DNA of 64,000 nucleotides from Candidatus Methylacidiphilales bacterium (lineage in GTDB: Bacteria > Verrucomicrobiota > Verrucomicrobiia > Methylacidiphilales > Verrucolacustridaceae), in the NCBI GenBank assembly GCA_040397385.1, contig JBBAWB010000005.1, positions 78,680 through 142,679 on the forward strand, read 5' to 3'. Each line of letters begins with the position of its first letter. Position 1 is the first letter of the stretch. The translations under genes and the position numbers were made by a program. Shown in pieces: positions 1,844 to 35,289 of this stretch. The notes beneath the pieces are model-generated. The model was not told where the DNA came from. It was given only the letters and a program-made list of their open reading frames with translations, and did not search any database.

Positions 1844-2095
1844 TTAGTTCTGGCCTGTCCAAAAAACGTTAGTTGAATCTGCAGAAATATCGCTCCTCTT
1901 TCGCATTTCCACATGGGCATCCACAAAACAGATATTCACTGAGGAGGATGAATCATTCACTTTCCGAGTAGGTGGATGACAGCAGTAGGGCATGAGAGTG
2001 GAATCCCTCCCCGAGCTCTCGGACAGTAGGAAGGGGCGCACTGGAATCCCAGTTCTTATCTCTAAGCAGGCGAAGGAGATTTCTTTCAGCTTCAC
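1844..2095 (-). pseudogene. possible remnant of a prepilin-like H-X9-DG (DUF1559-type) gene
   Basis: The C-terminal 'VNICFVDAHVEMRKRSDI' closely resembles 'YNICFLDGHTEWVKFNP' of the intact prepilin-like gene at 30250-30936, with DG changed to DA. There is no N-terminal FTLIELL methylation motif. It overlaps, in another frame, a 68-aa ORF (1953-2159) with a GntR-like 'PLPTVRELGEGF' segment. Confidence 0.25.
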
Positions 2096-2354
2096 GCGTT
2101 CGAAGAGCGGGGCGTTTGGGGATGTGGATACGATGGAGATGCATGTTATTTTGCAACAATATTTTATGTTGGTTTTTTATTTGTTAATCTATACTCAACA
2201 CATGTCGATGTTGGTCTTAGGAGAAGCTCCCAAATCAGAAAGGATTACTTCCATGATAGAAAAAGCAGTCAATCAAACCGATGTTGGCGCAAGGGATAGC
2301 AATCTCAAGAAAGTTTCCCTGGTTCGAGGTGACTTAACGTGAAGATAAGCCCTT

Positions 2355-2370
2355 GATGAGTCGATTCATC
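2355..2370. promoter_or_regulatory. imperfect 16-bp palindrome upstream of nagB (candidate operator)
   Basis: GATGAGTCGATTCATC has 14 of 16 positions self-complementary. It lies 64 nt upstream of the nagB ATG. No regulator can be assigned. Confidence 0.2.
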
Positions 2371-2433
2371 GCCCACTTCCCTGATAAGGTTGTCACGAAA
2401 TTACAACAACAACTGGGAGTATAAAGAAACGCC

Positions 2434-3219
2434 ATGGAAGTTATTATTTTACCGACAGCCGCAGAAGCCAGCGAAGTGGCCGCCCGATTGGTAACCCGTC
2501 AGCTCAGAGAAAAGCCCAGCTCAGTCCTAGGCCTGGCAACGGGCAGCACCCCCTGCAATTTGTATCAACTGCTAGCCCGGATGCACCGGGAGGATGGACT
2601 CGATTTTAGTAAGGCGACCACCTTCAACCTAGACGAGTACGTCAACCTCAACCCCACCCATCCGGCTTCCTACCACCAGTTCATGGAGGAGAACTTCTTC
2701 TCCCATGTGAACCTCGTGCGTAAGAATATTCACATCCCCGACGGCATGGTTGCCGATGTGCCCGCGCACTGTGCTGAATATGAAAGAGCCATTCGTAAAG
2801 CCGGCGGGATTGACCTGCAGATCCTCGGACTCGGCTCAGACGGACACCTCGGTTTCAATGAACCTGGCTCTTCGCTGGCTTCCCGCACTCGAATCAAGAC
2901 CTTAACGGAACGCACCCGCAGCGATAACGCTCGGTTTTTTACGGGTGCTCAGGAGGTTCCGCACCACGTGATCACGATGGGTCTTGGCACCATCATGGAA
3001 AGCCGGATGTGCCTGCTCCTCGCCTTTGGAAAAGCCAAGGCAGAGGCCGTGGCGGCAAGTGTCGAAGGCCCGGTGACGGCCTCGGTGCCCGGATCACTGC
3101 TCCAGTTCCATCCCCAGGTAAAGGTGCTCCTTGATGCTGAGTCGGCGTCATCACTCACTCGCGCCGAATATTACCAAGGCGTCTATCAAAACAAACCATC
3201 ATGGCAAACCGACCTTTAA
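2434..3219 (+). CDS. nagB: glucosamine-6-phosphate deaminase
   Basis: 261 aa with canonical NagB blocks: 'LGLATGSTP', 'TFNLDEY', 'GIDLQILGLGSDGHLGFNEPGSS', 'VITMGLGTI'. Confidence 0.93.
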   Translation: MEVIILPTAAEASEVAARLVTRQLREKPSSVLGLATGSTPCNLYQLLARMHREDGLDFSKATTFNLDEYVNLNPTHPASYHQFMEENFFSHVNLVRKNIHIPDGMVADVPAHCAEYERAIRKAGGIDLQILGLGSDGHLGFNEPGSSLASRTRIKTLTERTRSDNARFFTGAQEVPHHVITMGLGTIMESRMCLLLAFGKAKAEAVAASVEGPVTASVPGSLLQFHPQVKVLLDAESASSLTRAEYYQGVYQNKPSWQTDL

Positions 3220-3371
3220 CTTTGAACCGCAAGGCAATTGTTATCCCGTCTGTATCTGCCTTGAGTATGTGTGGATCGAATCGGAAGGTTGCAATCGGAC
3301 GGATAATGTTGCGAAAACCGTTCTTCTCCGCGATCTTCTTCGGTTAGGCTAGACTCGCGTTATTATCTAAT

Positions 3372-4127
3372 ATGAATCAACCGAAACCAGACTGGAAAGA
3401 ACAAGTCGCCGTGATCAGCGGCGGAGCGGACGGACTGGGTCTGGCCGTGGCCCGTCGCCTCTCCTTGCGCGGGGTTCGTCTAGTCCTGCTCGACCTCAAC
3501 GACGACGCCCTCGCCAAGGCCAAGCAGGAGCTTGGCCCGCGCACGCTGGCCCTTCGCGTGGACGTCACCGACCCGTCGGCTATGCGCAAAACTATTGATC
3601 AGGCCGCCGCCGAAACCGGTCGGTTGGATATTCTCATCAACTGCGCCGGCATCACCGGAAAAACAAATCTGAAGAGCCATGAGGTGGATCCTGCCGACTT
3701 CGACCGCGTCATGAAGGTCAACGTCAACGGCTGCCTCAACACTTTTCAGGCGGTCGTTCCCCACATGCTCAAGCGGAACTATGGCCGGGTGCTCCACTTT
3801 GCTTCGGTATCTGGCAAGGAGGGCAACGCCGGGATGCTCGCCTATTCCACTTCCAAGGCCGCCGTTATCGGTATGACCAAGGTGCAGGGCAAGGAGTACG
3901 CCCAAATGGGTATAACCGTGAATGCGCTGGCCCCGGCGGTCATCTTCACGGAGATGGTCGCGGCCCTGCCACCGGAACAGGTGAAATATATGACCGACAA
4001 GATCCCGATGGGCCGATGCGGCACCAAGGATGAAATCGCCGCCTTATGCGAATTCATCGTTTCGCCGGAAAACTCCTTCACCACTGCCTTCACCTACGAT
4101 TTGACCGGCGGACGCGCCACCTACTAA
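3372..4127 (+). CDS. short-chain dehydrogenase/reductase (candidate sugar or 2-keto-3-deoxy-sugar-acid dehydrogenase)
   Basis: 251 aa. Rossmann motif 'VISGGADGLGLAVARRL', 'NCAGI', and catalytic 'YSTSKAAV' (YxxxK). Confidence 0.9.
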   Translation: MNQPKPDWKEQVAVISGGADGLGLAVARRLSLRGVRLVLLDLNDDALAKAKQELGPRTLALRVDVTDPSAMRKTIDQAAAETGRLDILINCAGITGKTNLKSHEVDPADFDRVMKVNVNGCLNTFQAVVPHMLKRNYGRVLHFASVSGKEGNAGMLAYSTSKAAVIGMTKVQGKEYAQMGITVNALAPAVIFTEMVAALPPEQVKYMTDKIPMGRCGTKDEIAALCEFIVSPENSFTTAFTYDLTGGRATY

Positions 4128-4136
4128 GGAAAAACC

Positions 4137-4940
4137 ATGCACATCATCCGTTATCAGGACCCTCAAGAAAACATCCACTACGGCTCCCAGAATTCCCATG
4201 GTTCGGCCGTCCGCTGCACCGGCGATCTCTACGCCGGCCTGAAAGAAACCAAGGAGCCGGCCCGCATCGCCAAACTCCTGGCCCCGCTGGTCCCCTCGCA
4301 GATTCTCTGCATCGGGCTCAACTACCGCCACCATGCCGCGGAGTCGGGCATGAAGCCGCCGGAACGCCCCATCCTCTTCACTAAGGGCATCAACACGCTC
4401 CAGAACCCAGGCGATCCCATCGAGATTCCTGTCAAGGCCGCCAGCACCGAGGTCGACTACGAGTGCGAGCTTGCCGTGGTGATTGGCAAAGCGTGTAAGA
4501 ACGCCACTCCCGCAAACGCCCTTTCCCATGTGCTGGGTTATACCTGCGGAAATGATGTCTCCGCCCGCGACTGGCAGCTCAAGTGGGGCGGCGGGCAATG
4601 GTGCCGAGGAAAAACTTTCGACACCTTTTCCCCGCTGGGCCCCTGCCTCGTCACCGCCGACGAGATTCCCGACCCGCAAACCCTCGGTATTCGTACGATC
4701 CTGAACGGCGAGAAGGTTCAAGACTGGAACACGAATGATATGATCTTCAATGTGGCCGAGATCATCGCCTTCCTAAGCGGCAGCAACACCCTTCCGCCGG
4801 GCACGGTCATCCTGACCGGAACCCCGCACGGCGTCGGCATGGCCGCCAAACCGCCCCGCTGGTTAAAGGCAGGGGATCAAGTGACTATCGAGATCGACCG
4901 TATCGGCCAACTGACCAATCCCGTTGCCTTGGAGCGCTGA
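4137..4940 (+). CDS. fumarylacetoacetate hydrolase (FAH) family protein; candidate 2,4-diketo-3-deoxy-6-deoxyhexonate hydrolase
   Basis: 267 aa with FAH-family blocks 'ILCIGLNYRHHAAE', 'VDYECELAVVIGK', 'GYTCGNDVSARDWQ', 'GKTFDTFSPLGP', 'GTVILTGTPHGVG'. It starts 9 nt after the SDR stop. Confidence 0.88.
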   Translation: MHIIRYQDPQENIHYGSQNSHGSAVRCTGDLYAGLKETKEPARIAKLLAPLVPSQILCIGLNYRHHAAESGMKPPERPILFTKGINTLQNPGDPIEIPVKAASTEVDYECELAVVIGKACKNATPANALSHVLGYTCGNDVSARDWQLKWGGGQWCRGKTFDTFSPLGPCLVTADEIPDPQTLGIRTILNGEKVQDWNTNDMIFNVAEIIAFLSGSNTLPPGTVILTGTPHGVGMAAKPPRWLKAGDQVTIEIDRIGQLTNPVALER

Positions 4941-5018
4941 CCCGCCCTTTCCTTCTGCTTTCCCCGTGAACCTTGTTTTCGGCTACGGCAACTACCTTGG
5001 TGGTTGTTCGGCCGGACA

Positions 5019-5897
5019 TTAATCCATTTTATTTTTTGGTTGTTGTGGCTGATTGGAAAACGGGGCGTGGCGGAAGATACCGCCCGAATGCGGATGGGCT
5101 GCGAGCGCAGCCTCGGCTAGGCCTAGCCTTGATGTCGTGATGTAGAGGTGCCCTTCCCCAGAGAAGCAGCACGAGCTGGTGTGTGGGCAACCAGTATCCA
5201 CCCGCTGGAGGAGGAGGCCTGATTTCGGGCACCATTGGCAAACGCAGCCCGCGCCCCAGTGGGCGACCCAGAGTGTGTCGTCGCGTCCGACATCCATGCC
5301 ATCGGGAACCCCAAGGCCGTCGGGCACTCTGACCACAGTGCGCCAGTTGCGGATCGAAGAATCGGAGGAGTCGAAATCGAACGCCCAGATTTCCCGTGTC
5401 GGGGAATCGATGAAATACATCGTTTTGGAGTCGCGGGACCAACCCATGCCGTTGGAGATCGTGAGGTTGTCGAGCACGCGGGTGAGTTTGCCGCCGTCGA
5501 GCCGATAGAGTGACCCTGCGCCTTCGACGGAGCCGTCGTTCGACATCGTGCCGATCCAGAAGCGTCCGGACGGGTCTCGCTTGCCATCGTTGCAACGGTT
5601 CTCGGAGATCTCCGGCTCGACCTGGACGATTTCCCGGATGTCGCCGGTGGTCAGATCGACCGAGGCGAGACGCTTGGCAAAGGCGACGAGGTGGCGGCCA
5701 TTACCTGCGGGAACGACGACGCAAGGCAGTTCCTCGAACGGATGGCTGACGACACTGCCCCTGACGGGGTCGAAGCTGTTGATTTTGCAGCCCATCATGT
5801 CCACCCAGAGGAGGCGCTGTAGCTCGGCGTCCCAGCAGGGCCCTTCCCCGTGGGTGCTGCGGGTGTCGGCAACGAGGGTGGCGGTGGCGGTTTTCAT
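5019..5897 (-). CDS. SMP-30/gluconolactonase/LRE-like sugar lactonase
   Basis: 292 aa with 'GEGPCWD...LLWVD', 'NDGKRDPSGRFWIGTM' and 'SNGMGWS...MYFIDS', typical of the six-bladed propeller lactonases. A 12-nt gap separates it from the upstream dehydratase. Confidence 0.88.
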   Translation of the reverse strand: MKTATATLVADTRSTHGEGPCWDAELQRLLWVDMMGCKINSFDPVRGSVVSHPFEELPCVVVPAGNGRHLVAFAKRLASVDLTTGDIREIVQVEPEISENRCNDGKRDPSGRFWIGTMSNDGSVEGAGSLYRLDGGKLTRVLDNLTISNGMGWSRDSKTMYFIDSPTREIWAFDFDSSDSSIRNWRTVVRVPDGLGVPDGMDVGRDDTLWVAHWGAGCVCQWCPKSGLLLQRVDTGCPHTSSCCFSGEGHLYITTSRLGLAEAALAAHPHSGGIFRHAPFSNQPQQPKNKMD

Positions 5898-5909
5898 AAG
5901 AGTTCGGGC

Positions 5910-7088
5910 TTACCAGTCGGTGACCGCTCCGTCCGGCGTGAAACTGCGGCGCAGGATTTCCTGCTCGAACGGGTGCTTGCGCACCTCACCCTCGTTGATC
6001 TCGATGCCGAGTCCCGGCTTGTCGCTCGGGCGGACGATCTGGCCCTTCGGCTCGATGGTGAAGCCGGACCGGACGATGTCGTCGCGCCAAGGCACGTCGT
6101 TCTTGACGGATTCACAAATGAGATAGCTCGGCGTGGCGAAGCCAAACTCGAGCGAGGCCGCCGTGCTCACCGGCCCTTGCGGATTGTGCGGCGCAATGGA
6201 GACGCGATAGGCCTCGGCCAGCGCGGCGATGCGGCGCGCCTCGGTGAGCCCACCGCAATGGGTGATGTCGGGCTGGAGGATGCTGGCGGCGCGCTTTTGG
6301 AGGAGGTCGCGGAAGCCGTGGATGCCGGTGATACGTTCGCCGCTAGCAATGGGCGTGCCCACCGCGCGCTGGATGTCGGCCATGTCGTCGAGCACCTCGG
6401 GCCAGCAGACTTCCTCGAGAAAATAGAGGCCGTAGGGTTCCAGGGCGCGTGCAAACTGCATCCCCATGGCTGGTGAGGGGCGGGCGTGGCAGTCAACCAT
6501 CACGTCAATGTCCGGCCCCACAGCCTCGCGGATCGCCTCAACACAAGAGACAGCGTAATTGATTGGTCGGAGCCCCTCGATGGGCGCGGTCTCCGGAACA
6601 GCCATGCATTTGAAAGCGGTGTAGCCGTTTGCCACCGTCTCCTGCGCGAGCTCGGCGAAGCGTTTTGCATCGCCCGGCGCGGTGAGATAAAAATCCTCCA
6701 TTTTTCCTCCGCCGAGATGGCTGTAGGTCCGGATGTAGTCGCGCACCGGGCCACCCCACAGCCGATGACAGGGGACGTTGTGAACCTTGCCCATGATGTC
6801 CCAGAGCGCGAGGTCAATGCCCGCAATCGCCGTGGCGCGGACGATACCATTGCCGTGCCAGAAATGCTGGCGGAACATCATCTGCCAGAGGTGCTCCACG
6901 CGCGTGGGATCCTCGCCGATGATGAGTTGGGAAAGATCCTCGATGGCCCCGATCACTGAGCGCGTGTGCCATTCCAGCGTCGCCTCACCCCAACCGTAAA
7001 GCCCGGGCTGGTCGGTCAGGACTTTGACAAAGATCCAGTTTCGCATGCGGGCGTTGCAGATAAGCGTTTCGATTTTTGTGATTTTCAT
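5910..7088 (-). CDS. enolase-superfamily sugar-acid dehydratase (D-galactonate dehydratase-like)
   Basis: 392 aa. 'MKITKIETL...[22 protein letters not shown]' and '[14 protein letters not shown]...[10 protein letters not shown]' align by eye with E. coli DgoD along the full length. Confidence 0.9.
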
Positions 7089-7124
7089 AGTTGGTAAGAC
7101 GCCGAATGGGCAGGTTGGGTTTTG

Positions 7125-7934
7125 CTATTTGCCTACGATGGGTTTGGACGCATAGGGCTCGCGGCTGACGAGCAGGCTGGTCATTCCGAGGTCGGCAAAA
7201 ATGTTGGCCCCCGTGATGCACGACGAATCATCGCTCAGAAGAAAAATGCAACATTTGGCGACTTCTTCGGGAGTGATCAGGCGGTTACCCGGGATGTTGG
7301 CATTCCAGTAGTCGAGGCACTCCTTTTCGCTGGGTGCAGCAGCGATGTGGTCCTTCCAGATTTCAGTTTCGCAGAGGCCGGGGGAAAGGATGTTCACCCG
7401 GATGCCGAAAGGTGCGAGCTCCACGGCGGCGGCTTTGCTGAAGCCGACCATCCCGTGCTTGGCAGCGTCGTAAGGCGCGGCCCCGGCCACCGCAGCATGG
7501 GTGTGGACACTGGCGATCTGGACGATCGAGCCAACATGCCCGGCCTTATGCATTGTGCGCGCGCAAAGTTGGGTGAGTAGAAACGAACCGGTGAGATCGA
7601 CGTCGAGCACGCGCTGCCATTCGACCAGATTAATTTCGAGGAACGGCTTCACGTAGTCAACGCCCGCGTTGTTGATCAGCCCGTCGATGCGTCCGAACCG
7701 TTTGACCGAACGTTGGACGAGGGCCTCCAATTGCGACGGATTGCTCATGTCGGTCACAACAACCTCGGCCTCACCGCCCGTGGCGGCAATGCGGGTTGCG
7801 ACGGAATCGAGTTCCGGCTTCGAGCGGGCGGCCAGAACGACTTTCGCGCCTTCGCGGGAACAGGTTTCAGCCATGGAAACACCAAGGCCCTTGCTGGCTC
7901 CGGTGATGATGATGACTTTGTTTTGTAGTTTCAT
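7125..7934 (-). CDS. short-chain dehydrogenase/reductase
   Basis: I trimmed the track ORF (7125-8045) to the ATG giving 'MKLQNKVIIITGASKGLG'. That ATG overlaps the upstream stop as ATGA (7931-7934). It has 'NNAGV' and the catalytic 'YDAAKHGM'. Confidence 0.88.
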   Translation of the reverse strand: MKLQNKVIIITGASKGLGVSMAETCSREGAKVVLAARSKPELDSVATRIAATGGEAEVVVTDMSNPSQLEALVQRSVKRFGRIDGLINNAGVDYVKPFLEINLVEWQRVLDVDLTGSFLLTQLCARTMHKAGHVGSIVQIASVHTHAAVAGAAPYDAAKHGMVGFSKAAAVELAPFGIRVNILSPGLCETEIWKDHIAAAPSEKECLDYWNANIPGNRLITPEEVAKCCIFLLSDDSSCITGANIFADLGMTSLLVSREPYASKPIVGK

Positions 7935-8887
7935 AGGGAGGAGGTGTTGATCCATTGGTTTTTCCAGTCGGAGAATTCGCAGTCCGACAAAAGCATGAGC
8001 CGCGTGGTGGCGACTTCCGTAAAGCTTTGCGGTCCGATGCCGCAACGCAGCGCAGGCGAGCGGTGTTCGAGTTCGCCGAAGCCGCCAAAACTGCCATCGT
8101 CGCAGAAGAATTGGAGCGCATCGCCCTGGGTATCGAGGGCATGGAGCGGAGAGTCGCAGTAAAACAAATCCGGATAAACCGGAAAGAAACGCTCAAGGAC
8201 CAGTTGGCCGCCCGGCACTGGCCGTGCGTAGGCGACGCGCCCGGCCGAGTGCGCGGCAGAGATGCCAAGTTTGAACATCGATGAGCAGCGGATTTGGATC
8301 TCCGTGTAAGTCGGGCACACCGAGAATTCGCTGGCGGGAGTGGGGCTGAAGTAATCGCGCGGCACCGCGTGACCGACGCTCGGAATCAGCAGGCTGCCGC
8401 CGGGGCGGATTTGGATCAGCGACCAGAAGTCCACCGGCTGGCCGGGCGTGCCATCGAGAATCTCCATGCCAGTGCAAGTGCGCAGACCAATGCCTGATCT
8501 GGGCGCGCCAAGATTCTCCACCGACAGCAATTCGACGGAGCGCGCCAAGCGGACTTTCACATTCGCGTCCCGGTGCGCCGAGTTAACGGTTATGTCCACC
8601 GAGCCCGCAAAGAATCCGTCGCGTGATTGATCGACCGTCCAGATGTCCAGGTCGAGAGCGGGCGGCACTTTGTAATGGGCGAAGTCCAGCTTGTCGAGAC
8701 TCTGCCAGTGCCAGTCGGCCTCGGGACCAATCCAGAGGCGCTCGCCCCCAAGATTCCACGAGGCGGTCCCTTCCGGTGGCGACCAGAGGGATTGGTATCC
8801 GGCGACCTCGATGCCGAGCACGCGTCCGCGTTCGGGAAGCACGCGAATGCTGCCGACTTCTGTTTTCCAATTAATGGGAGTGTCCAT
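7931..8887 (-). CDS. conserved hypothetical, possibly galactose-mutarotase-like (DUF4380-like)
   Basis: First gene of the minus-strand operon. I trimmed it to the ATG at 8887 ('MDTPINWKTEV'). The motif 'NLGGERLWIGPEADW' resembles the GG-x-R-x-W-x-x-PE block I associate with DUF4380/aldose-epimerase-like proteins. The coding call is strong; the function call is weak. Confidence 0.6.
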   Translation of the reverse strand: MDTPINWKTEVGSIRVLPERGRVLGIEVAGYQSLWSPPEGTASWNLGGERLWIGPEADWHWQSLDKLDFAHYKVPPALDLDIWTVDQSRDGFFAGSVDITVNSAHRDANVKVRLARSVELLSVENLGAPRSGIGLRTCTGMEILDGTPGQPVDFWSLIQIRPGGSLLIPSVGHAVPRDYFSPTPASEFSVCPTYTEIQIRCSSMFKLGISAAHSAGRVAYARPVPGGQLVLERFFPVYPDLFYCDSPLHALDTQGDALQFFCDDGSFGGFGELEHRSPALRCGIGPQSFTEVATTRLMLLSDCEFSDWKNQWINTSSL

Positions 8888-9166
8888 AAGTTTGATCAAA
8901 TCGTGGCAATGGATTTTATACCACAACAGAAGCCATCCATTCGTCTCCGGTGAGTCTCGTGCCGAGTGCGAGGGAAAAATACGTGGCCTCGCCGTCGGGA
9001 TCGGCGAACTCCGTAAAATACAATGGGCCTCGGGTGCAAACGCAGCGAGCAAAGTAGACCTCGGTTTGTGCCAGCCAGAGATGGCCTTAGCGCCAGATCA
9101 TTGGCGTGTGATTTACGGGACGAATGCACAATGCATCCCCCATTTCGACCAGTCATAAAACCAACT

Positions 9167-9180
9167 ACTCATACGTATGA
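9167..9180. promoter_or_regulatory. perfect 14-bp palindrome with central CG (candidate LacI-family operator)
   Basis: CTCATACGTATGAG is exactly self-complementary. It lies in the divergent intergenic region between the 8887 operon start and the lacI-family ATG at 9209. Confidence 0.35.
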
Positions 9181-9208
9181 GATTGACGTATTGAACCGTG
9201 ATTACAAG

Positions 9209-10216
9209 ATGCTTTCCATGCACGATTTGTCGGCTCCGACCCAAAAGCAAATGGCGACGCGCCTCGGGGTCTCGCAGTCGCTGGTTTCTCGCGCTCTTTC
9301 GGGGCGTGCCAGAGAAATCGGGGCATCTCGGGAGACGGTTGAAATGATCCGCCGCACGGCCGTGAAATGGAACTATCAGCCGAGCGCAACGGCACTCGCC
9401 TTGCTTGGTGCGCCGACGCGCACAATCGGCGTCGTGGTGAAACATTTTGATGACCCCTATTTCGGGCGACTCATTGGTGCGTTACAGATCCTGGCCTGTG
9501 AGAACGGCAACTCTCTTCTGCTCACCGGAGGCACCCAGGCGGATCTCGCCGGGCTACAAAAGCACCGGGTGGACGGCGTGATTTTGGCTGGCAGCGATTT
9601 CCAGCCGGAGGGCCTGCGGAGCTTTGCGCACGGAGGACTACCAGTGGTTCAGATCGGAACGGGTTCTTCTTTTTCGGGAACCATGCAGATTCACATGGAT
9701 GAAGAGGCGGGCATCGAAGAACTGGTAGGATATCTCGCGAGTTTAGGACATCGGGACATCGGGTTTGTCGCGGGGAGGACGGGATCGAACAGACGTCGTG
9801 GCGAAATCGTGCGGCGCAGACTGCGGGCACGAGGATTTTCCGTTAGACCCAAAGCGTTTATTTTTTCGGAGGGATCCGATGGTGAGGTTGCTGAACATGC
9901 GGTCGATGCGCTTCTCGGCTTGGGCCGGATGCCGACGGCAATGATTGCCGCGGAAGATTCCTTGGCGATCGCACTCCTGTGCTACCTTTACAAAAAAGGG
10001 ATTAGCGTACCGCGGGAGATTTCTATTGCAGGCATCGACGATATCGCTGTATCTGCGCATGCCACCCCTCCGCTTACGACGCTCCGACAACCCATTCCCG
10101 AAATGGCAGCTACTGCCTTTCGTGCACTCACTTTATCCGGCGGAAAAAGGAGGCCCGTGTCGGTCCCCGGGACCCTGATACTCCGCGATTCGTGCGCTCC
10201 ACTTGCTTCGCTCTAA
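9209..10216 (+). CDS. LacI-family transcriptional regulator
   Basis: I trimmed it to the ATG at 9209. The N-terminal HTH is '[22 protein letters not shown]', followed by a periplasmic-binding-protein-like sugar-sensor core ('IGVVV..FDDPYF', 'VDGVILAG', 'ISIAGIDD'). Confidence 0.9.
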
Positions 10217-10236: not shown

Positions 10237-10971
10237 ATGAAAATCACCATTGCAAAAACAAAACAGGAGTCAGGTGCCGCGGCGGCTGTGCTCGGCGCAA
10301 AACTCATCCGGGAAGCACTCCGCAAGAACGGAAAGGCCAACATCATCGTGGCCACCGGCGCATCGCAATTTGAAACAATCGGAAAGCTCGTGAGAGAACA
10401 GCGGATCGACTGGACGCGCGTCACAGCCTTTCATCTGGACGAGTACGTCGGAACGCCGATCACGCATCCCGCTTCGTTTCGGAAATATCTTTGGGAACGC
10501 TTTGTCAGCCAGCTTCCGCTCCCTCTCGCGGCATTCCATTACATCAATGGTGAAGGCGATGCCCAGGCCGAATGCCAACGCGTCAACGCGATCATTGCGA
10601 AGCATCCGATTGATGTTTGTTTCGCCGGGATTGGCGAGAACGGACATCTGGCCTTCAACGATCCGCCCGCCGATTTTAAAACTCATGCTCCCTATCTAGT
10701 TGTCCAACTCGATCAGGCATGTCGTCGCCAACAAATGGGTGAAGGCTGGTTTAAAACGTTGGCCCAGGTGCCACGTCGGGCCATCTCAATGTCCATCCAA
10801 CAAATCCTGAAATCAAAAGCCATCATCTGCACAGTGCCGGATCGGCGTAAAGCCAAGGCTGTGCGGGATTGCCTGCAGGGACAAATCTCCCCCCTTCACC
10901 CCTCCTCCATCTTACAAAAGCATCCTGCCACTTGGTGCTTTCTCGACCGAGCCTCCGCCTCCCTGCTCTAG
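10237..10971 (+). CDS. NagB/6-phosphogluconolactonase-family sugar-phosphate deaminase/isomerase (divergent second paralog)
   Basis: I trimmed it to '[11 protein letters not shown]'. Blocks: 'IIVATGASQ', 'AFHLDEYVG', '[19 protein letters not shown]'. It is clearly the same fold as nagB at 2434 but divergent. It starts 21 nt after the lacI-family stop. Confidence 0.85.
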
Positions 10972-10984
10972 GAGCTTTCTTTCG

Positions 10985-13158: not shown

Positions 13159-13249
13159 CGACGGAAATTCTTCGGCCCAGATTAGGAGTTCACATTGGAT
13201 TCTAGGCTGCTGCCGGGAGCAGGGATATTTGAGATGTAAAAATGCACCC

Positions 13250-15286: not shown

Positions 15287-15290
15287 GCTG

Positions 15291-17570: not shown

Positions 17571-17596
17571 GATCTGGCCGGATAGACGAGCACTTA

Positions 17597-24490: not shown

Positions 24491-24552
24491 AGCATCTTTG
24501 CTGAGTTTAGCTGGGTTTCCCGTCGGAGCGGGGGTGAGTTTGGATTGAGGTT

Positions 24553-25170: not shown

Positions 25171-25337
25171 ATTCGGATTTCTTTCTGATTTGATGGTTAA
25201 ATTAAACTTTGGTGCTCCTTAATTCACTGTGCACTCCGTTGGGCCTGGCAAAAAGAAACATCTCTTGCATTTTCTCGCAGATTTTTGTTTTTTCAAGCAG
25301 GCGGAGGCAAGGCATAGAAACGCGCAGACTTCGTCAG

Positions 25338-27707: not shown

Positions 27708-27842
27708 ATTGCTGTTAAAGATGTCTAGCTATAAGATGGTTGCTGCTGGCCTGAGCCACCAGGCGCCGCGATTCGCAAAGAAGATGGGGAAATTCCATCC
27801 AAAGCGGCGATTCGGGTTGAGGTCTTTGCATGGTTCCGTTCC

Positions 27843-30119
27843 TTACCGGGCGATGATCGCCACCGGGCGCAAAAGGCCTCCCGTGCCGAGTTCGTTGGCA
27901 GAGCCGCCCTTCGTGTAGTTGACAATCCGCAAAGTGACGGTGTGTTGAGCGCGAGCCGGGTCGAGGGTCGGAATCTCGAACAGCAGCGGGCCAAAGTTGG
28001 ATGCGTCCTGCTCGCCGACCAGCTGGCCGTCGACCCAGGCCTGAGTCTGGCAGTCCGCACCGGCGATGAGCAGCGCGGCTTTTTTGCCGGCGGGAACGCG
28101 CAGTGGGGGAAAGGTCTGACGATACCAGATCGGCCCGCGGTATCGCTCCCAGCCCTGCTCGGCGAGGCACGCGGAGTAGGTCTTCAACTTCATGAAACCG
28201 AACAGCGGCGTCTCATCGCCCATCGCTCCTTCGAGTTCGCCTGTGTCGGTGAAATCGAAATAGGCCGGCCACTCATCGGGAAAACGATGCAGAATCGTCG
28301 CGTCGCGCATCCACCCAGCGACGGTTGCCACATGGTCGCCGTAGTAGGGATTATACCAAGCCTTCTTCAGAAACTCGCTGGTCGTCAGCGGGTCGTAAAC
28401 AAGCGCCTCATCCCACGAGTGGAGGATTTCCTCATTGAGCCGCTGCGCTGCCGCGAAATCGAACCGGTTGATTGCCTCGCGCATCGCCATGAAGCGTTCG
28501 CCCTGGGCCAGCACGCGCTCGAACAAACCCACACGATGGGCGAGAATCTTGTCCGTCTTGGCAAGCGCGACGGCCCTGTTCATAAGTTTCCGCAAGCTCG
28601 CGAGCCGTTGTGAAGTGAAGACCGTCCCGACGAACTCCTTATTACCGGCAGAGAAGGGCACCGCCTGGTAGGCTGCACTGAGTTCATCCAGATAAGCGTG
28701 CATCGGTTGTGTCGCCGCCCCGAAATAGCGCGGATAGAACTCGTCGAGGAGGGCACGCTGGTCGGTATTCACATTCCAGAGCAGTTTCGCCATCAGAAAA
28801 TAATCCGGCAGGTAGTTCGGCCAGTTCTTGGCCGTCTCGATTACATAATACCGGCAACCCTTGGCATAAAGCTTGGGCAAATCGCTGCCAACCATGTGGA
28901 GCCGGGTGAAGGGCATCAGCGAGTCCGGACACAAGAACGAATAATCATACCAGCCGAAAGTCATACCCTGGCTGGCCACGCGGTCCACTGTGCGCTCCAG
29001 CATCGAGCGGGTCGGACTGCGCGGGTCGCCCACTGCGTGGTATCGATCGAAGTTCAATGGCGCAAAGACCGGCAGAAGATTGTGAGACAACTTTACCTTT
29101 CGGGGGCCGGCCTGGTGATTGGAATAAACGTAGACGCTGAGCCGGACGTTGGGATATTCAGCGGTTACTTTATCTTGCACCGCACTGCAGAACTGGAGCA
29201 CAAGATCGCTCACATCGGGCAGCTGGGAGAATGTCAGATCGTTTCTGGATATGAACTCCCGGCTTGCGGGACTTTCATCGCGCACCAGACCGTCGTCCGG
29301 CGAGATGGAGAGCAGGGCTCTCACGTCATGCGGTTTGCCAGCAAGCTTCTCCCGGTAGTGTTTAGCAAACAGATCGACGACCGCCGGATGGGTGAGATTG
29401 AGTTGATTTTGCACGCGCTGCCCATTCACCAGACCAAACCAATCGGGATGTTCTGCGAACAACTTGGCCCGGCCACCACTTGCGGCCAGAACGGATTCCC
29501 ACGCGTGACCAGAATAGAGAATGACATCTCCCCCGACCTTGTTGCGAAGGCACCAGAGATCGAATTCCTTTTTGTCCGTAACCGTGTTGCCGGCCGGCTG
29601 GCCGCCGTTGTACCCGGGGTTGCGAGCGAGAAAGGACGGGACCTGTCGCACCGGCGCATCCGGCAGCCACAAGGTATCGCGTCGCGGCACATCCTCTCCG
29701 AATGGCCCGGGCGTGAACCAGCGCACCCCCTGCCGTTCAAGAAAATCGGCGACCGCGAAATGCGTGGCCGCGCTGCTCTCTCCGGCCATCCGCACGAGTT
29801 TGCCGCTGACATCATAGGCAAATCCGTCCACTCCGTATTCAGTGGCCGGCACGCTCAACCCCGACGCAATCGCGAGCTCTCCAAGCACGAAGGAGGGCAC
29901 GTCGACGGGGATACCAGTTGTGTCGGCCACGGATTTTACGGTCAGGGTGTCGCCCGTCAGCTTCTGCAGGTAATCGCGCAAATCGGCGGCCGCCTGTTGG
30001 AGTCCCGGCGAGGCGTTGATGGGCAGATAGATCGCGGCACCTTGAAAATTAGTGGAGGCTCGAGCATGCGTCGTCGCTAGCAGTAAGGCTGCACTCAGAA
30101 TCGTGGCAATGAATTTCAT
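27843..30119 (-). CDS. secreted DUF4838-like putative glycoside hydrolase with a C-terminal galactose-binding-like domain
   Basis: 758 aa with signal peptide 'MKFIATILSAALLLATTHARA'. 'GHAWESVL...FAEHPDWFGLVNGQRV..QLNLTHPAVVDL...ISPDDG' follows the DUF4838 pattern as I recall it. The C-terminal 'ALLIAGADCQTQAWVDGQLVGEQ' resembles GH2-type sugar-binding jelly rolls. Confidence 0.7.
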   Translation of the reverse strand: MKFIATILSAALLLATTHARASTNFQGAAIYLPINASPGLQQAAADLRDYLQKLTGDTLTVKSVADTTGIPVDVPSFVLGELAIASGLSVPATEYGVDGFAYDVSGKLVRMAGESSAATHFAVADFLERQGVRWFTPGPFGEDVPRRDTLWLPDAPVRQVPSFLARNPGYNGGQPAGNTVTDKKEFDLWCLRNKVGGDVILYSGHAWESVLAASGGRAKLFAEHPDWFGLVNGQRVQNQLNLTHPAVVDLFAKHYREKLAGKPHDVRALLSISPDDGLVRDESPASREFISRNDLTFSQLPDVSDLVLQFCSAVQDKVTAEYPNVRLSVYVYSNHQAGPRKVKLSHNLLPVFAPLNFDRYHAVGDPRSPTRSMLERTVDRVASQGMTFGWYDYSFLCPDSLMPFTRLHMVGSDLPKLYAKGCRYYVIETAKNWPNYLPDYFLMAKLLWNVNTDQRALLDEFYPRYFGAATQPMHAYLDELSAAYQAVPFSAGNKEFVGTVFTSQRLASLRKLMNRAVALAKTDKILAHRVGLFERVLAQGERFMAMREAINRFDFAAAQRLNEEILHSWDEALVYDPLTTSEFLKKAWYNPYYGDHVATVAGWMRDATILHRFPDEWPAYFDFTDTGELEGAMGDETPLFGFMKLKTYSACLAEQGWERYRGPIWYRQTFPPLRVPAGKKAALLIAGADCQTQAWVDGQLVGEQDASNFGPLLFEIPTLDPARAQHTVTLRIVNYTKGGSANELGTGGLLRPVAIIAR

Positions 30120-30249
30120 GGTTCGGGAGTTATAATCAGCTCAATGAGGGGACTAGTCTAACGGGTCCGTTCGCTCCGCCACGCTAAGGGTCGCACCCTT
30201 CTGCGAATAAAGGCATTCCAACCACCTTGGATGCGGATATCCCGGGGAT

Positions 30250-30936
30250 TTAATACGGCTTCCATTGGAACTGAGAGTAATCGCCCGCACCGTTCCCCTT
30301 AAATTGCCCTGTGGGGTTGAACTTCACCCACTCCGTATGTCCGTCAAGGAAGCAGATATTGTACCCGCCCTTATGCGCCGCGTAGAGGTGGTAATACCAT
30401 GGCGAGCCACCATCGAAACAGTAGCCGCCCCATGCGCTGCCGCCGAGGGCGCTTTCGTTGTCGTAGAAAAGCGGGGTTTTGGACGGCTGCGGGATTTGTG
30501 CGATTCTGGCCGGGTTCCTGAAGCCTTCCTGGGATTGTGCTCCCGCGATTCCGGAAGCGCTGCTAAAGTACAGGTTCATTCCATAGCCGGTATGAAACGA
30601 AGCCGAAGCCCATTTGTATGTGCGCGTAAATGTCGGGCATCGCAGCGCATAATTGGCTGCCGAGCCCTTGCCAAGGTACGGCAAAAGGGTTGAATACCAA
30701 CCACCCCCGCTGGATTCGGGTGGAGCGATGAAGCCTGGGTTATCCACGGTGTATAGGCTGGCAGCAGCCCCGTACTGCCGCATGTTACTCATGCATTGAC
30801 TTGAGTGAGCGGATTCAAGGGCGCGTATCAGCCCTTGGCTTCCCAGGGCCGCGAGAATTGCGATGATCGTAATCACCGCAAGAAGCTCGATCAGCGTGAA
30901 TGCCTTCTCTCGCTTTATGATTTGGGGAAATTTCAC
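30250..30936 (-). CDS. prepilin-type N-terminal cleavage/methylation protein with H-X9-DG motif (DUF1559-like pseudopilin)
   Basis: 'KREKAFTLIELLAVITIIAILAAL' is a class III signal/methylation motif. The C-terminal 'HKGGYNICFLDGHTEWV' is the H-X9-DG motif. The track start is TTG at 30966; I prefer GTG at 30936/30939. Confidence 0.85.
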   Translation of the reverse strand: MKFPQIIKREKAFTLIELLAVITIIAILAALGSQGLIRALESAHSSQCMSNMRQYGAAASLYTVDNPGFIAPPESSGGGWYSTLLPYLGKGSAANYALRCPTFTRTYKWASASFHTGYGMNLYFSSASGIAGAQSQEGFRNPARIAQIPQPSKTPLFYDNESALGGSAWGGYCFDGGSPWYYHLYAAHKGGYNICFLDGHTEWVKFNPTGQFKGNGAGDYSQFQWKPY

Positions 30937-30985
30937 CACGACGTCGACAGAGCAACGGGGTGGCAACCCTTGCAGTTCGGAATGG

Positions 30986-31654
30986 TTAAACTTTCGATGA
31001 CTTTCGCTTGCGCAGCACCAGCATCAATCCACTCAGTCCAAGAAGCGACATAGTGGCAGGTTCGGGAATCTGGGTGATGTTCACCACGTCGATGAAGGAA
31101 GCCCCGTCCGAACCTCCTCCTGAGGTGGATGTGAATGCGAGTGTATTTATGCCGGGAGTGGCGATAAACGCGTCGCTGGTGTATAAAGTCCAACCGCTTG
31201 AGTCGGGCGTGATGGTGTCGAGGAGGCTAAATTTCAGCGCAGTACCGCCGAGCGTCACCCCGAAGATCGAGAGATGTCCAGGACGACTGGAGGCATAGAA
31301 GCTAACCGTGGTGCTCAAGGCTTCAAAACCGCTGACCGATTGGGAGAACGAGGCAGAACGCCCATAGATCCATGCCGCTTGGGTGCCATCGGGGAATGGG
31401 GACCAAGCCTGCAAGCCCCCGGTATTTCCGGGATTGCCGTAGGATGTGTCGATTCCACCATACGACCCCGTGCCCAGAGTAAAAGTCCATCCAGGGACGC
31501 CCCCGGGGAGGTTTGCGGCATCGTAGTTGGTCTGAGGGTTCAAGCCGGTATTGGCTTCGAAGCTGTTGTTTACTACGACCACAGCGGCGATTGCAGGCGT
31601 CGTGCTCCCAGCGACCAATGCGACCGCTAGAAATGTGAGATATTTAATTTTCAT
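30986..31654 (-). CDS. PEP-CTERM-anchored secreted carbohydrate-binding-like protein
   Basis: I trimmed it to 'MKIKYLTFLAVALVAGSTTPAIA'. The C-terminus 'IPEPATMSLLGLSGLMLVLRKRK' is PEP + TM helix + basic tail. It is a paralog of 24553-25170. Confidence 0.85.
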   Translation of the reverse strand: MKIKYLTFLAVALVAGSTTPAIAAVVVVNNSFEANTGLNPQTNYDAANLPGGVPGWTFTLGTGSYGGIDTSYGNPGNTGGLQAWSPFPDGTQAAWIYGRSASFSQSVSGFEALSTTVSFYASSRPGHLSIFGVTLGGTALKFSLLDTITPDSSGWTLYTSDAFIATPGINTLAFTSTSGGGSDGASFIDVVNITQIPEPATMSLLGLSGLMLVLRKRKSSKV

Positions 31655-31886
31655 ATAGTTGTATCCTTTTCTTGGGTTTGCTTGAGGTTTGTTTATTAAT
31701 TTCACTTTTTTTTCTTTTCTTCTGTTCGCAACATAATCCAACACCTGGGTTTCGCAAGGTTTTCGTCTAGCACATTCAAGCAAATCACTTGAACAAATTG
31801 GTATTATCCTTTCCCTAACAAATAAGCATTATCCTGTCTCTCTTTTTTCCTGTATCGCATTCGGCACCGCGAGCTAACCTCACCGC

Positions 31887-32771
31887 GTGAAGGCGGCACC
31901 AACTACCTTGGCTCTGACCAATCCGTTTCCGCACGCCCACGCGAAAGGCTACGATTTGGACTTTGCTTCCGTTCATTCGAGCGTCGTTCCTGTCACGGAA
32001 TGGAGAGCTCCCCGGTTTCACTTTTGGGTAATTGATGTCGCCAGTGATCGGCCGATGCGCCAGCGGATCGGCGGAAAGGAAACCATCCGTCCGCCCGAGT
32101 CGGTGTCGCTTTATGCGCCGAACGTGACTTACGAGGAGTTCCACGAAAAAGGAAGTCTGATGCGCCAGGCGTGGCTGATGTTTCGCGTAGCGGATCATCG
32201 CTCGCCTCTCTACAAGTTGGTTAAGCCCGACGGGTATTGCATCTTCGAGGACCCCGGCTCTCTGGTTCGTACGCTTATCGGGCACATTGCCTCGTACTTC
32301 CTCAACCCCAATCCGGGTGCCGACTGGTTTGCCCGAAGCGCCTTCTACCAGATCCTGGCGCTGTTGCGATCCGCCAAGGGAGAGCCCATGCGGCGCATTT
32401 GCCTGCCCAGCCTGCAGCTTGCCCGCGAAGACAAATCGCTGCGCAGCCAGGTGGAGAACTATCTCCACGCTCACCCCGAGGGGCGCGTGACAGCGAATGA
32501 AATGGCCGTGCATCTGGGACTGGGGAGATCGTCGTTCACCCACCGCTACCGCGAAGAAGCTGGGGAAACATTCATCCAGACAAAGTCCCGGGTCCGCATT
32601 GAAAGGGCCAAGTTGATGCTTGTTTCCGAACGGATGCCCGTGAAACAGATCGCCGCCGAGTTAGGGTTCTCAGACGCCGCCCATTTTTCACGTGTCTTCC
32701 ATCAGATCGTGGGAATTTCGCCCGCCATCTTCAAAAGGCAGGTGATGCCACAAACAAGACTGGGTATGTGA
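31887..32771 (+). CDS. AraC-family transcriptional regulator
   Basis: 294 aa with a GTG start. The C-terminal double HTH is 'ANEMAVHLGLGRSSFTHRYREEAGETF...VKQIAAELGFSDAAHFSRVFHQIVGISP'. Confidence 0.88.
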   Translation: MKAAPTTLALTNPFPHAHAKGYDLDFASVHSSVVPVTEWRAPRFHFWVIDVASDRPMRQRIGGKETIRPPESVSLYAPNVTYEEFHEKGSLMRQAWLMFRVADHRSPLYKLVKPDGYCIFEDPGSLVRTLIGHIASYFLNPNPGADWFARSAFYQILALLRSAKGEPMRRICLPSLQLAREDKSLRSQVENYLHAHPEGRVTANEMAVHLGLGRSSFTHRYREEAGETFIQTKSRVRIERAKLMLVSERMPVKQIAAELGFSDAAHFSRVFHQIVGISPAIFKRQVMPQTRLGM

Positions 32772-32909
32772 CGATGACCCGTTGCCTGGTCATTAGAAAA
32801 AGGACAAACTCTGCCAGGAATCGGTGATTCTTTCGCCGTGTTCCATCTGATTAGACCGGACGGGATGGTCTTCCTGCTGCGGTGACCTTCCTCAGTTACA
32901 AACAATCCC

Positions 32910-33308
32910 ATGACTCCATCCACACGTTCCCCATGGAATATGGAAACGCTCTCGTTGGCACCGCGTGCCGAAGAGGATCCAGATCGGGGCATTGAAGGTG
33001 TTAATGCGATCTTCTACCAGGGTTTGCCCTGGAAGGGCCGGCCTCCCCTCATTTTTGCCTATTACGTTTTGCCGTCAGTCCAGCTGAGCGGAAAAGTTCC
33101 CGCCATGGTGCTCGTGCCTGGCGGCGGCGGAGACGCCTTCATCCCGTGGGTCCGGCTATGGTTGGGTCGTGGATACGCCGTCATTGCCATGGACACCTGC
33201 GGCTGCATTAGCAGTGGCGGACAAGGAAACCATTCCCGCCATCTAGACGGAGGACCTGCCGGTTGGGATGGGTTTGATCCAATCGACGAACCGATGGAGG
33301 ATCCATGA
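32910..33308 (+). pseudogene. N-terminal fragment of an acetylxylan-esterase-like alpha/beta hydrolase (truncated before the nucleophile)
   Basis: 132 aa with 'VPAMVLVPGGGGDAFIPWVRLWLGRGYAVIAMDTCG...GGPAGWDGFDPIDEPMEDP'. This is the usual first third of ~380-aa esterases of this type. The ORF stops at a TGA overlapping the ABC exporter ATG, and no GxSxG follows. Confidence 0.5.
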
Positions 33309-35125
33309 ATACGATAAAAACAGCCAGCCCCGATACAGCTAGTGTGGGGGTAAAAATCTCTCCCCTGCGACGTCTTTGGGATATCCTGCGCTTTGAGTCC
33401 GGTGGCTTGGGAGTCGCAGCCACATTCCAAATTCTTCAGCCCCTGACTTACCTGCCCTTCTTCGCCGGCGTGGGCATTCTTGTAGATGACATTTTGCAGA
33501 ATCCAGCACTCACGACTGAGCAACGATACCGCTATATTGTATTTTACGCGCTGGCCAATCTAGCCTTATGGCCGCTGCACGCGTGGTGCACGGTGAATGC
33601 CTTTAAACACAGCCAGCGATTGGTTCGCGCGGCGGTGGCCCAACTGCGGCGTTTGATTGTGGACAAGCTGCAACGCCTGTCTTTGAGCTTCTTCACCCGG
33701 CGCGGTTCTGGAGCGCTGGCCAACCAGGTTACGGTCGATCTCGGACGTCTTGAATCATTTCTCACGAATGCGGTCGGCAGCTTTTTCATCCAATTGGTTC
33801 AGGCGGTTGGCGCGTTGGCTTATCTGGTATGGCTCAGCCCCTTGCTTGCCGGATTGATGATGCTGGCCATACCGCTGCAGTTGTTTGTGGTGAACCGGAT
33901 GCGGAAGAAGCTGGAACAACTCAATCAGCAGGTTCAGCAGAGCAGTGAAAACATTTCCGACCGGGTCGTGGAATTTATCGGCGGGATGCGGGTGACCAAG
34001 AGTCTGGGCAACGAGGAGCGCGTCGCCAATGAACTCGCTGAGGTGATCGAGCGGGTGCGCGGTGCCGGGCTCGAGGCCAGTGTCACCATGCGGTGGGTTG
34101 CCGTCGGCATCCAGATGATTGGCGAATTTATCGGGGTGCTGGTTTGGTGTGTGGGCGGCTATTTATATTTGTTGGGACAAATGCCCATCGGTTCGTTGGT
34201 GGTTTTCTCTGGGATCTTCGGATTTGTGCGGGGTGGTTTTCAAGCCTTCATGGGTGCCTACGACGCTTGGATGCAAGCCAAGCCCGGACTGGTAGCCGTG
34301 CTGGCCATCCTCGACTCTGAAGAGTTGGAAGATTGCCGCCACTTGCACGGTGCTGTTCGCCATCAACTCAAAGGGGAACTGCAACTAGAAAACATATCCT
34401 TCCGCTACCCTGGACTGGAAGGGGCGCCCACCCTGAGCGATCTGAACCTGCATATTCCAGCCGGTCAGCGAATCGGATTGGTCGGTGAAACGGGCGCTGG
34501 CAAGAGCACGTTGCTGGATCTGATTCTCGGATTTTATCCGCCCGATAAAGGGGAAATTCTTTACGACGGCCAGAGGATCGAAAAAGTTGGTCTACTCGAA
34601 CTGAGGCGCAACGTCGCCATCATGGGGCAAGATACTTTCCTCTGGAACACCACCGTGCGGGAAAACATCCGTTACGGCCGTCCCACGGCGACGGATACGG
34701 AGGTGGAAGTCGCTGCCGCCAAAGCCCAGGCCGACGGCTTTATTCGTTCATTGGAACGTGGCTACGAAACAATTTGTGGCGAACGAGGCGGCAGGCTGTC
34801 CGGCGGACAACGCCAACGCATCGCGCTGGCCCGGGTGTTTCTACGTAATCCCAGCATTGTCATCCTGGATGAGCCGACCAGCGCCCTTGATCTGCAAACC
34901 GAAGCTAACCTGCAAGACGATCTGGATGTGCTTTGTAAAGGGCGGACCACCTTCATCGTTGCCCATCGCCTGTCCACTTTACGGAACGTGAATCGGGTGT
35001 TGGTTTTTCATCGCGGTCGGATAGTTGAGGACGGCAGCATGCAGGAATTATTGGCCAAGACCGGTGGGCATTTTTCAACGCTGATGGAATTACAGACACG
35101 CGGTCTACCGAAACAGATGGTTTGA
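33305..35125 (+). CDS. ABC exporter, fused permease/ATPase (MsbA-like type I exporter)
   Basis: 606 aa: six N-terminal TM helices, Walker A 'GETGAGKST', signature 'LSGGQRQRIALAR', Walker B 'IVILDEPTSALD', H-loop 'FIVAHR'. Confidence 0.92.
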   Translation: MNTIKTASPDTASVGVKISPLRRLWDILRFESGGLGVAATFQILQPLTYLPFFAGVGILVDDILQNPALTTEQRYRYIVFYALANLALWPLHAWCTVNAFKHSQRLVRAAVAQLRRLIVDKLQRLSLSFFTRRGSGALANQVTVDLGRLESFLTNAVGSFFIQLVQAVGALAYLVWLSPLLAGLMMLAIPLQLFVVNRMRKKLEQLNQQVQQSSENISDRVVEFIGGMRVTKSLGNEERVANELAEVIERVRGAGLEASVTMRWVAVGIQMIGEFIGVLVWCVGGYLYLLGQMPIGSLVVFSGIFGFVRGGFQAFMGAYDAWMQAKPGLVAVLAILDSEELEDCRHLHGAVRHQLKGELQLENISFRYPGLEGAPTLSDLNLHIPAGQRIGLVGETGAGKSTLLDLILGFYPPDKGEILYDGQRIEKVGLLELRRNVAIMGQDTFLWNTTVRENIRYGRPTATDTEVEVAAAKAQADGFIRSLERGYETICGERGGRLSGGQRQRIALARVFLRNPSIVILDEPTSALDLQTEANLQDDLDVLCKGRTTFIVAHRLSTLRNVNRVLVFHRGRIVEDGSMQELLAKTGGHFSTLMELQTRGLPKQMV

Positions 35126-35130
35126 GTGGC

Positions 35131-35289
35131 ATAATAACCATCATTTTCTCACTCCCCCAGCTGGGGGAAGCTATCGCCCAAACCCCCGAATGCCAAAAGT
35201 GGTGGCAACACATGAGCGATGTCATGCCTTCCAACTCCGACCACTCCCCCAAGGCCATGGATTTGCGCGAAGTTTTCCATCTCTCTTAG
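35131..35289 (+). pseudogene. rhaM: C-terminal remnant of L-rhamnose mutarotase
   Basis: Not in the track (no start codon). My translation '..TIIFSLPQLGEAIAQTPECQKWWQHMSDVMPSNSDHSPKAMDLREVFHLS*' aligns with the C-terminal half of E. coli RhaM ('..[32 protein letters not shown]'). The N-terminal ~50 codons are missing, and the frame runs straight out of the ABC gene's 3' end. Confidence 0.75.

Follow-up and report, generated by a model that had tools for sequence, protein, structure and literature searches.

The stretch analysed here (hereafter the window) comprises 64,000 nucleotides of contig JBBAWB010000005.1 from Candidatus Methylacidiphilales bacterium. Between the end of a bactofilin gene (1826) and the start of a nemA-like reductase gene (35457), it carries a block of sugar-utilisation genes that is most probably a flexible genomic island with metabolic functions, foreign in origin and mosaic in structure. 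The block has a foreign composition, is present in some relatives and absent in others, shares modules with other contigs and is bounded by real junctions. The host is a freshwater verrucomicrobium: its nemA-like protein matches freshwater metagenome-assembled genomes (MAGs) labelled as subdivision 6 or Methylacidiphilales, with 96% identity to contigs L004 and L005 and 89% to L006, a locus of the complete 2.05-Mb chromosome OZ239145.1. The nucleotide identity among the window strain, L004 and L005 is 95.3-96%, making the three roughly equidistant.

To describe strand bias, 55 genes were curated with Pfam support and GC skew was taken at third (GC3) and four-fold degenerate codon positions. 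Gene-strand GC3 skew was modelled as c + r x orientation, in which r is the strand component and c the coding component. The 29-kb right flank, together with loci from relatives, served as the baseline for the chromosome; the left flank beyond -2.2 kb is represented by relatives only. Right-flank genes in both orientations have a plus-strand GC3 skew of -0.4 to -0.7, yielding r = -0.455 (-0.52 to -0.40) and c = -0.075, whereas block genes range from -0.34 to +0.39, the sign tracking gene orientation, with r = +0.005 (-0.05 to 0.06) and c = -0.115. The strand component thus differs between block and flank (Mann-Whitney p = 2.6e-8). At four-fold sites it amounts to -0.53 in the flank, and the coding-strand component is alike in both regions. 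Pooled plus-strand four-fold sites comprise 1888 G and 1938 C in the block (skew -0.013), as against 544 G and 2208 C in the flank (skew -0.605). Likewise, bulk GC skew in 2-kb windows runs from -0.14 to +0.08 over 2-35 kb and from -0.11 to -0.38 over 35-64 kb. A pooled four-fold skew of -0.605 and bulk values of -0.2 to -0.38 lie at the extreme end for bacteria.

Codon usage agrees with these figures. Plus-strand genes of the flank use GCC and GCG 233 and 31 times and AAA and AAG 150 and 45 times, while the corresponding counts for minus-strand genes are 62 and 157, and 70 and 131; a plus/minus split of this type is absent from the block. The block retains an ordinary mild coding-strand preference for C at third positions, without the orientation-independent skew of its host. 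The initial annotation of this DNA had proposed that the strand-specific codon bias fails inside the block, as borne out by regression, four-fold counts and codon counts; its description of flank genes as C-ending with AAA-type codons on the plus strand and G-ending on the minus strand is matched by the codon counts, and per-gene GC3 skew depends on orientation differently inside the block than outside. On the other hand, two plus-strand genes described as G3-rich (13250-14002 and 33305-35125) are in fact balanced (+0.03 for 13229-14002 and -0.00 for 33305-35125). The flank polarity that had been ascribed to both genes at the left edge is seen for bactofilin on the plus strand (-0.49; four-fold -0.72) and not for the histidine kinase gene on the minus strand (-0.10; four-fold +0.07). 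Because the kinase gene is not host-like, the left edge of the block is set by synteny and not by composition. At the right edge, a single maximum-likelihood change point in composition falls at 35130, the base after the region of the ABC exporter gene stop codon, which coincides with the structural junction at 35166/35170.

Strong negative skew is also found in the orthologous flanks of L004 and L005 (the same genes as in the window), in the unrelated nemA neighbourhood of L006, a different region of OZ239145.1, and on both sides of the histidine kinase-bactofilin pair in the more distant relatives L084-L092. Since it recurs in relatives, the block is the anomaly and the flank the norm of the lineage. 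The host polarity is independent of gene orientation and is accompanied by a mild excess of A, which fits a replication-associated bias. Full-text keyword searches on GC skew in Verrucomicrobia and on polysaccharides and freshwater Methylacidiphilales listed no paper whose title or abstract deals with such a bias in the lineage.

The site occurs in at least three states among relatives at near-species level, namely the 33-kb sugar block, a toxin-antitoxin pair with rhaM, and nothing, as judged from a small number of incomplete MAG contigs. About 280 bp separate bactofilin from nemA in L004, where window positions 1877-35371 (33.5 kb) are missing; blastn aligns L004 732-2560, 2702-2739 and 2749-11026 with window 1-1829, 1839-1876 and 35372-43663, respectively. 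In L005, nemA is immediately preceded by an intact rhaM and a VapBC-like pair, and the homology of this contig to the window begins at 35170, inside rhaM. The pair (L005 2-703) consists of an 81-amino acid antitoxin-like open reading frame (ORF) and a 150-amino acid PIN-like ORF, both weakly skewed, whose translations look VapBC-like by eye. In the more distant L091, bactofilin precedes a giant immunoglobulin-like (Big_13/Big_6) gene (L091 6-9293, >3095 amino acids) with a GC3 of 0.82 and no skew. Relatives of about 80% identity show a strongly skewed opposite-strand ORF after bactofilin (L084 7-1521; L092 1469-2182), matching the PMT glycosyltransferase family in L084 and L092 and finding no match among the window proteins compared (1.3 to 52.9 kb).

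Similarity to the copies of the ABC module on other contigs stops at 35166, 4 bases before homology to the L005 rhaM gene starts at 35170, and the right junction is therefore fixed to a few bases. Gene remnants had been reported previously at the block edges. This applies to 35170-35289 (+), the C-terminal 40 amino acids of RhaM, of which 36 are identical to the intact gene in L005, and to 1844-1990 (-), the C-terminal 47 amino acids of a pseudopilin-like (DUF1559-type) protein with 49% amino acid identity to the C terminus of L102 7137-7805; by its C-terminal motif, the latter may belong to the HX9DG family. It is uncertain for orf132 (32910-33308, +), which ends where the ABC module starts. 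This ORF is possibly an alpha/beta hydrolase fragment, with a weak S15 peptidase match (PF02129; E = 0.003), and the same 132-amino acid ORF is called in L001, L002 and L112.

Partners of individual modules were found by looking up the members of 90%-identity clusters. Module A (3242-7939) has 90-93% nucleotide identity to a cassette in L096-L103, on contigs of up to 983 kb with unrelated flanks, where its neighbours include RhaA, RhaT, GH78 and sulfatase genes and the bulk skew, taken over 2 kb at a time, ranges from -0.06 to +0.16. Module B (10291-13053) is 91.2% identical to L104-L106, again with unrelated flanks and a local skew of -0.07 to -0.20. The ABC module (33322-35166) is 95.6% identical to L107-L111, where it adjoins GH78 rhamnosidase genes, and the similarity ends exactly at 33322 and 35166. 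Over both sets of contigs, those with module A and those with the ABC module, skew is weak (-0.14 to +0.16). Between L103 and the porin region of the window, identity is only 67%. Strand-symmetrised tetranucleotide frequencies of block segments correlate at 0.81-0.90 with the rest of the block and at 0.56-0.77 with the flank; consistently, L096-L103 and L107 correlate at 0.91-0.96 with the block, and relatives at 0.90-0.96 with the flank. L104-L106 are host-like in this respect (0.89-0.91 to the flank, 0.83-0.86 to the block). We propose that such sugar modules circulate among freshwater Verrucomicrobia.

Three alternatives to acquisition concern the nature of the block and of its flank, and we consider each of them very improbable. 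The initial annotation had raised the possibility of a chimeric assembly; the DNA of two organisms would then be joined near 1.9 kb and again near 35.1 kb. The sharp change in composition at 35130 would be expected from such a join, and several contigs of relatives do break off close by, L004 and L005 beginning only 2.8 and 1.2 kb before nemA and L116 stopping within the ABC gene. However, a 191,857-bp contig from an independent sample, JGI 3300057305, carries both junctions at 98% identity, the left one within a 21,248-bp high-scoring segment pair (window 988-22224, 98.1%) and the right one within another (25459-36794). A second independent sample, JGI 3300057098, spans window 25950-45094, including the right junction, and Logan contigs from run SRR11430614 cross both edges at 100% identity. 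In addition, an NCBI contig of 170,686 bp is recorded as carrying window proteins, and host-derived remnants directly abut the foreign DNA. At least three assemblies thus refute a chimera. Equally remote is the idea that recent inversions or rearrangements have shuffled native DNA until its skew cancelled out. In the bulk profile, sub-blocks do alternate in sign (+0.07 at 5-10 kb, -0.13 at 10-13 kb), but the alternation follows gene orientation and reflects the preference of coding strands for C3 (c = -0.115). Host genes, if inverted, would retain an absolute four-fold skew of about 0.5-0.7, whereas most block genes come within 0.1 of zero after correction for the coding effect; none of them shows the strong, sign-reversed skew expected of inverted host DNA. 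Moreover, tetranucleotide frequencies differ even when strand-symmetrised, and the closer relatives of the modules are found on other contigs. The earlier alternatives of an acquired or a heavily rearranged island are thereby separated: absence from L004, the module mosaic and tetranucleotide composition speak for acquisition, and a rearrangement of native DNA is rejected, block genes having almost no strand component. There is hardly more to be said for the right flank being the anomaly, for instance through local hypermutation, and the block the normal genome. For bacteria, -0.3 is an unusually high bulk skew, and the left flank, with the histidine kinase and response regulator genes, is weakly skewed. 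Yet strong skew occurs in unrelated regions of relatives, including the complete chromosome of L006, and on both sides of the kinase-bactofilin pair in L084, L086 and L088, and the flank itself holds housekeeping genes in both orientations.

Several observations weigh against a recent, foreign origin of the block and concern its age in particular. The empty site of L004 retains 38 bp (1839-1876) of the left remnant, and it is therefore a secondary deletion and not a pristine pre-insertion site. The block is not very young, being shared by the strains of 98% identity and having a 95%-identical copy. This copy is collinear with window 7.8-34.5 kb and comes from other samples (L113, L114 and L116; contig of 28,890 bp). 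The block thus predates the 98% strains and, with segments missing from the collinear copy, is itself gaining and losing pieces. Where modules of the window differ from their foreign copies, the differing sites show no shift toward plus-strand C. Four-fold substitutions in the block, polarised with the window, the JGI strain and an outgroup, give a net G-C change of -11 in 174 (p = 0.39). The 17-21 kb seen per partner contig is itself sugar-utilisation DNA and could be an island within a skewed genome; the correlations reported above for the partners included the shared modules. Furthermore, ARAGORN found no tRNA in the 64-kb window, no sequence of at least 10 bp recurs between the two border regions in direct or inverted orientation, and the module borders share no repeat of at least 11 bp. 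Comparison of the 29 block ORFs with Pfam returned no integrase, transposase, conjugation or phage family (five ORFs were matchless and orf132 matched weakly; the comparison included no structure or deep-homology search). Finally, residence time may not be the sole determinant of skew, as the histidine kinase, response regulator and TPR genes to the left have a plus-strand GC3 skew of -0.02 to -0.17 in all relatives examined, down to 65% amino acid identity, next to flanking genes of -0.35 to -0.86 (L003 36-3588; L084, L085, L086, L088 and L089). Since the kinase-regulator pair keeps its weak skew across deep divergence, weak skew alone is no proof of recency in this lineage, and it is the comparative evidence, more than skew by itself, that argues for a foreign origin. 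That the block was recently acquired and not yet ameliorated, as suggested initially, is therefore only partly supported: it predates the split of the 98% strains, the L004 site is a deletion, and the kinase-regulator pair stays weakly skewed. The block does occupy the same place in the closest relatives, which by the initial annotation speaks against such an origin.

These points could be accommodated by a long-resident flexible region, in which sugar DNA at the site predates the split of these lineages and zero skew results either from continual recombination with a shared pool or from a gene-specific equilibrium. We regard this as possible, though unlikely. Both edges carry what is left of older island genes, in one case shared with L004, and the VapBC and rhaM genes of L005 are likewise without skew at the same site; the kinase-regulator pair and orf118, a gene of the right flank, are weakly skewed in relatives. 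The window strain and the JGI strain (window 988-46613 against L117/L001) have diverged by 2.3% over the block and by 1.0% over the flank, in a mosaic pattern that ranges from 0.2 to 7% per kb in both. Such mosaicism is equally visible in the flank, however, where each kb differs by 0.2-0.6% between 36 and 41 kb and by 2.5-7% between 41 and 46 kb; it indicates frequent homologous recombination in the population, which in turn confounds tests for drift of the skew. At four-fold sites, G was gained 25 times and C 28 times in the block, as against 4 and 20 times in the flank (Fisher p = 0.012), from small substitution counts; substitution rates over all sites of the flank are confounded by codon position. 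The C gains in the flank are consistent with a bias that maintains the skew, and the near-parity in the block fits an import of outside alleles. Continuous exchange with the module partners is not shown, because the nearest module copies differ by 4-10%. Above all, a long-resident region still needs a foreign or pooled origin and departs from the best explanation in timing only. Somewhat further-reaching, and in our view as doubtful, is the idea that skew does not simply follow residence time, as flexible DNA and a few conserved genes (the kinase-regulator pair and orf118) stay at zero skew across deep divergence: accessory and some regulatory genes would form a recombining pool shared between lineages, outside the replication-associated mutation bias of the host. 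If so, the skew of each gene would measure how private it is to the chromosome.

We thus favour a foreign mosaic island and envisage its history as follows. The DNA would have come together in genomes or a gene pool of low strand bias, or been taken up from them, and would have replaced earlier island content at the site, leaving truncated genes at both edges. As truncated host-side genes abut the foreign DNA at both ends, we infer a replacement of earlier island content by recombination, homologous or illegitimate, and not a site-specific integration. The missing skew would be a matter of residence time, the block having spent too little of it on the replichore, or else of continual overwriting by recombination with outside copies.

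The left host anchor of the island is the bactofilin gene (1365-1826, +; PF04519), which has host-like skew and 96.7% amino acid identity to L004. It is preceded by the 5' part of the histidine kinase gene (1-1352, -), which continues past the window, is conserved in relatives and is weakly skewed in L004 and L084-L089 as well. Downstream of the pseudopilin-like remnant, the first gene of the NagB/6-phosphogluconolactonase family (2434-3219, +; PF01182) is the sole member of its own 90%-identity cluster. By Pfam and NCBIfam matches, module A encodes a short-chain dehydrogenase/reductase (SDR), an FAH-family hydrolase, an SGL lactonase, an enolase-superfamily sugar-acid dehydratase and a second SDR, with a GC3 of 0.71-0.79. 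It is followed by genes for a DUF6786 protein (-) and a LacI-type regulator (+), both recognised by profile matches (7931-10216), and by module B on the plus strand, which comprises a second NagB-like gene, a UxaE-like epimerase and a NagA-like deacetylase (Pfam and NCBIfam). The segment from 13229 to 20057 encodes an SDR, a second enolase-superfamily dehydratase, a PIG-L deacetylase, an MFS sugar transporter, a GFO/IDH/MocA oxidoreductase and an alpha/beta hydrolase, and has a collinear copy of 95% identity in L113/L114. On the minus strand, 20223-30119 holds genes for large proteins without family assignment (866, 574 and 789 amino acids), a DUF642/CBM protein and a DUF4838 protein, which probably act on polysaccharides. 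A 1738-bp segment within this region (22759-24496), containing orf574, which has no family match, is absent from the 95%-identical copies L113, L114 and L116 according to blastn breakpoints. Genes for an N-methyl/DUF1559 pseudopilin-like protein, a PEP-CTERM protein and an AraC regulator follow (30250-32771). The ABC module is a single plus-strand gene encoding a fused ABC exporter and forms the right end of the foreign DNA.

As a whole, the island is predicted to combine an oxidative pathway for sugar acids with an amino-sugar module, an MFS transporter and an ABC exporter, regulators of the LacI and AraC types, and large secreted proteins, the DUF4838 and CBM-like ones among them, that probably act on glycans. 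Module A looks like an oxidative, non-phosphorylative pathway of the 6-deoxyhexose/galactose type. It has the enzyme classes expected of the non-phosphorylative L-rhamnose and L-fucose pathways, with an SDR dehydrogenase, a lactonase, an enolase-superfamily dehydratase, a second SDR and an FAH-family hydrolase. On other contigs it adjoins RhaA, RhaT, rhaM and GH78 rhamnosidase genes. The NCBIfam models for the L-rhamnose pathway scored below their cutoffs (1-dehydrogenase, 175 vs 400; rhamnonate dehydratase, 140 vs 393; didehydro-deoxy-rhamnonate hydrolase, 215 vs 500), and the module A dehydratase passes the galactonate dehydratase model only (330 vs a 311-bit cutoff). Compared with known rhamnose and fucose clusters, an assignment of module A to rhamnose or fucose would thus draw on gene context in the other contigs. 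In the 95%-identical copy, a 1.6-kb deletion (window 6226-7828; L113 21034-21326) has fused the dehydratase, reduced to its C-terminal part, with the N terminus of the second SDR, and module A is decaying in that lineage.

To the right of the island, the nemA-like gene of the Old-yellow-enzyme family (35457-36536, +; PF00724) serves as host anchor, with a GC3 skew of -0.50 and a position next to bactofilin in L004. The remaining flank (36957-64000) contains mostly housekeeping genes in both orientations, among them those for a double-length UvrA, Fur, YebC, a DeoC-family aldolase, a Kdo kinase and GT9. The UvrA protein (36957-42578) has 1873 amino acids, about twice the usual length, and its gene contains internal repeats of about 67% nucleotide identity (for example, 38382-38659 and 41094-41371), so that it looks like a tandem UvrA-UvrA fusion; the double length is conserved in L004, L005, L001 and L112. 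Three flank genes are nearly without strand skew, namely orf118 (44739-45095), a TSP3-repeat protein gene and an alpha/beta hydrolase gene (59888-61302). In L005, orf118 is weakly skewed as well, and it evolves faster than its neighbours (85% amino acid identity, compared with 95-98%).

The phenomenon is an ordinary one, an exchangeable genomic island, and it is well documented here. Detecting islands through GC-skew anomalies is established practice. For an uncultured freshwater verrucomicrobial lineage with small genomes, the window illustrates clearly what an accessory island for sugar catabolism looks like, with junctions resolved to a few bases, three allelic states and partner contigs for three modules. 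The strong bias of the host exposes foreign DNA gene by gene, and the flexible genome of the group could be mapped from composition alone, with the caution, learnt from the conserved kinase-regulator pair, that weak skew does not always signal a recent arrival.

Genomic islands have been described as regions of 10-200 kb with deviant nucleotide statistics, with tRNA sites, flanking direct repeats of 16-20 bp and mobility genes among the criteria (Juhas et al. 2009, PMC2704930). The block is like them in size, with 33.5 kb absent in L004 and present in the JGI strains, in its detection through close relatives, in a GC skew, tetranucleotide composition and codon usage that deviate from the chromosome, and in its accessory fitness genes for sugar catabolism. 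Unlike the classical site-specific island, integrative and conjugative element or prophage, it has no tRNA target, flanking direct repeats, integrase, conjugation or phage genes. For aquatic bacteria, flexible genomic islands of replacement and additive types have been distinguished (Lopez-Perez et al. 2014, PMC4033161), and flexible islands are also known from freshwater and marine Methylophilaceae (PMC10872708). Replacement islands typically carry cell-surface glycosylation clusters, whereas the block is catabolic. The same location holds different content in L004, L005 and L091, with alternatives that, as far as these incomplete contigs reach, are not of similar function; the additive type would call for an integrase or transposase, or for module-border repeats, and none was detected in the block. 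Varying by integrase-free gain and loss of cassettes, it fits neither type cleanly. With its fixed site between conserved genes, lineage-specific content, borders free of mobility genes and recombination-mosaic divergence between strains, however, the block most resembles the flexible genomic islands of aquatic bacteria.

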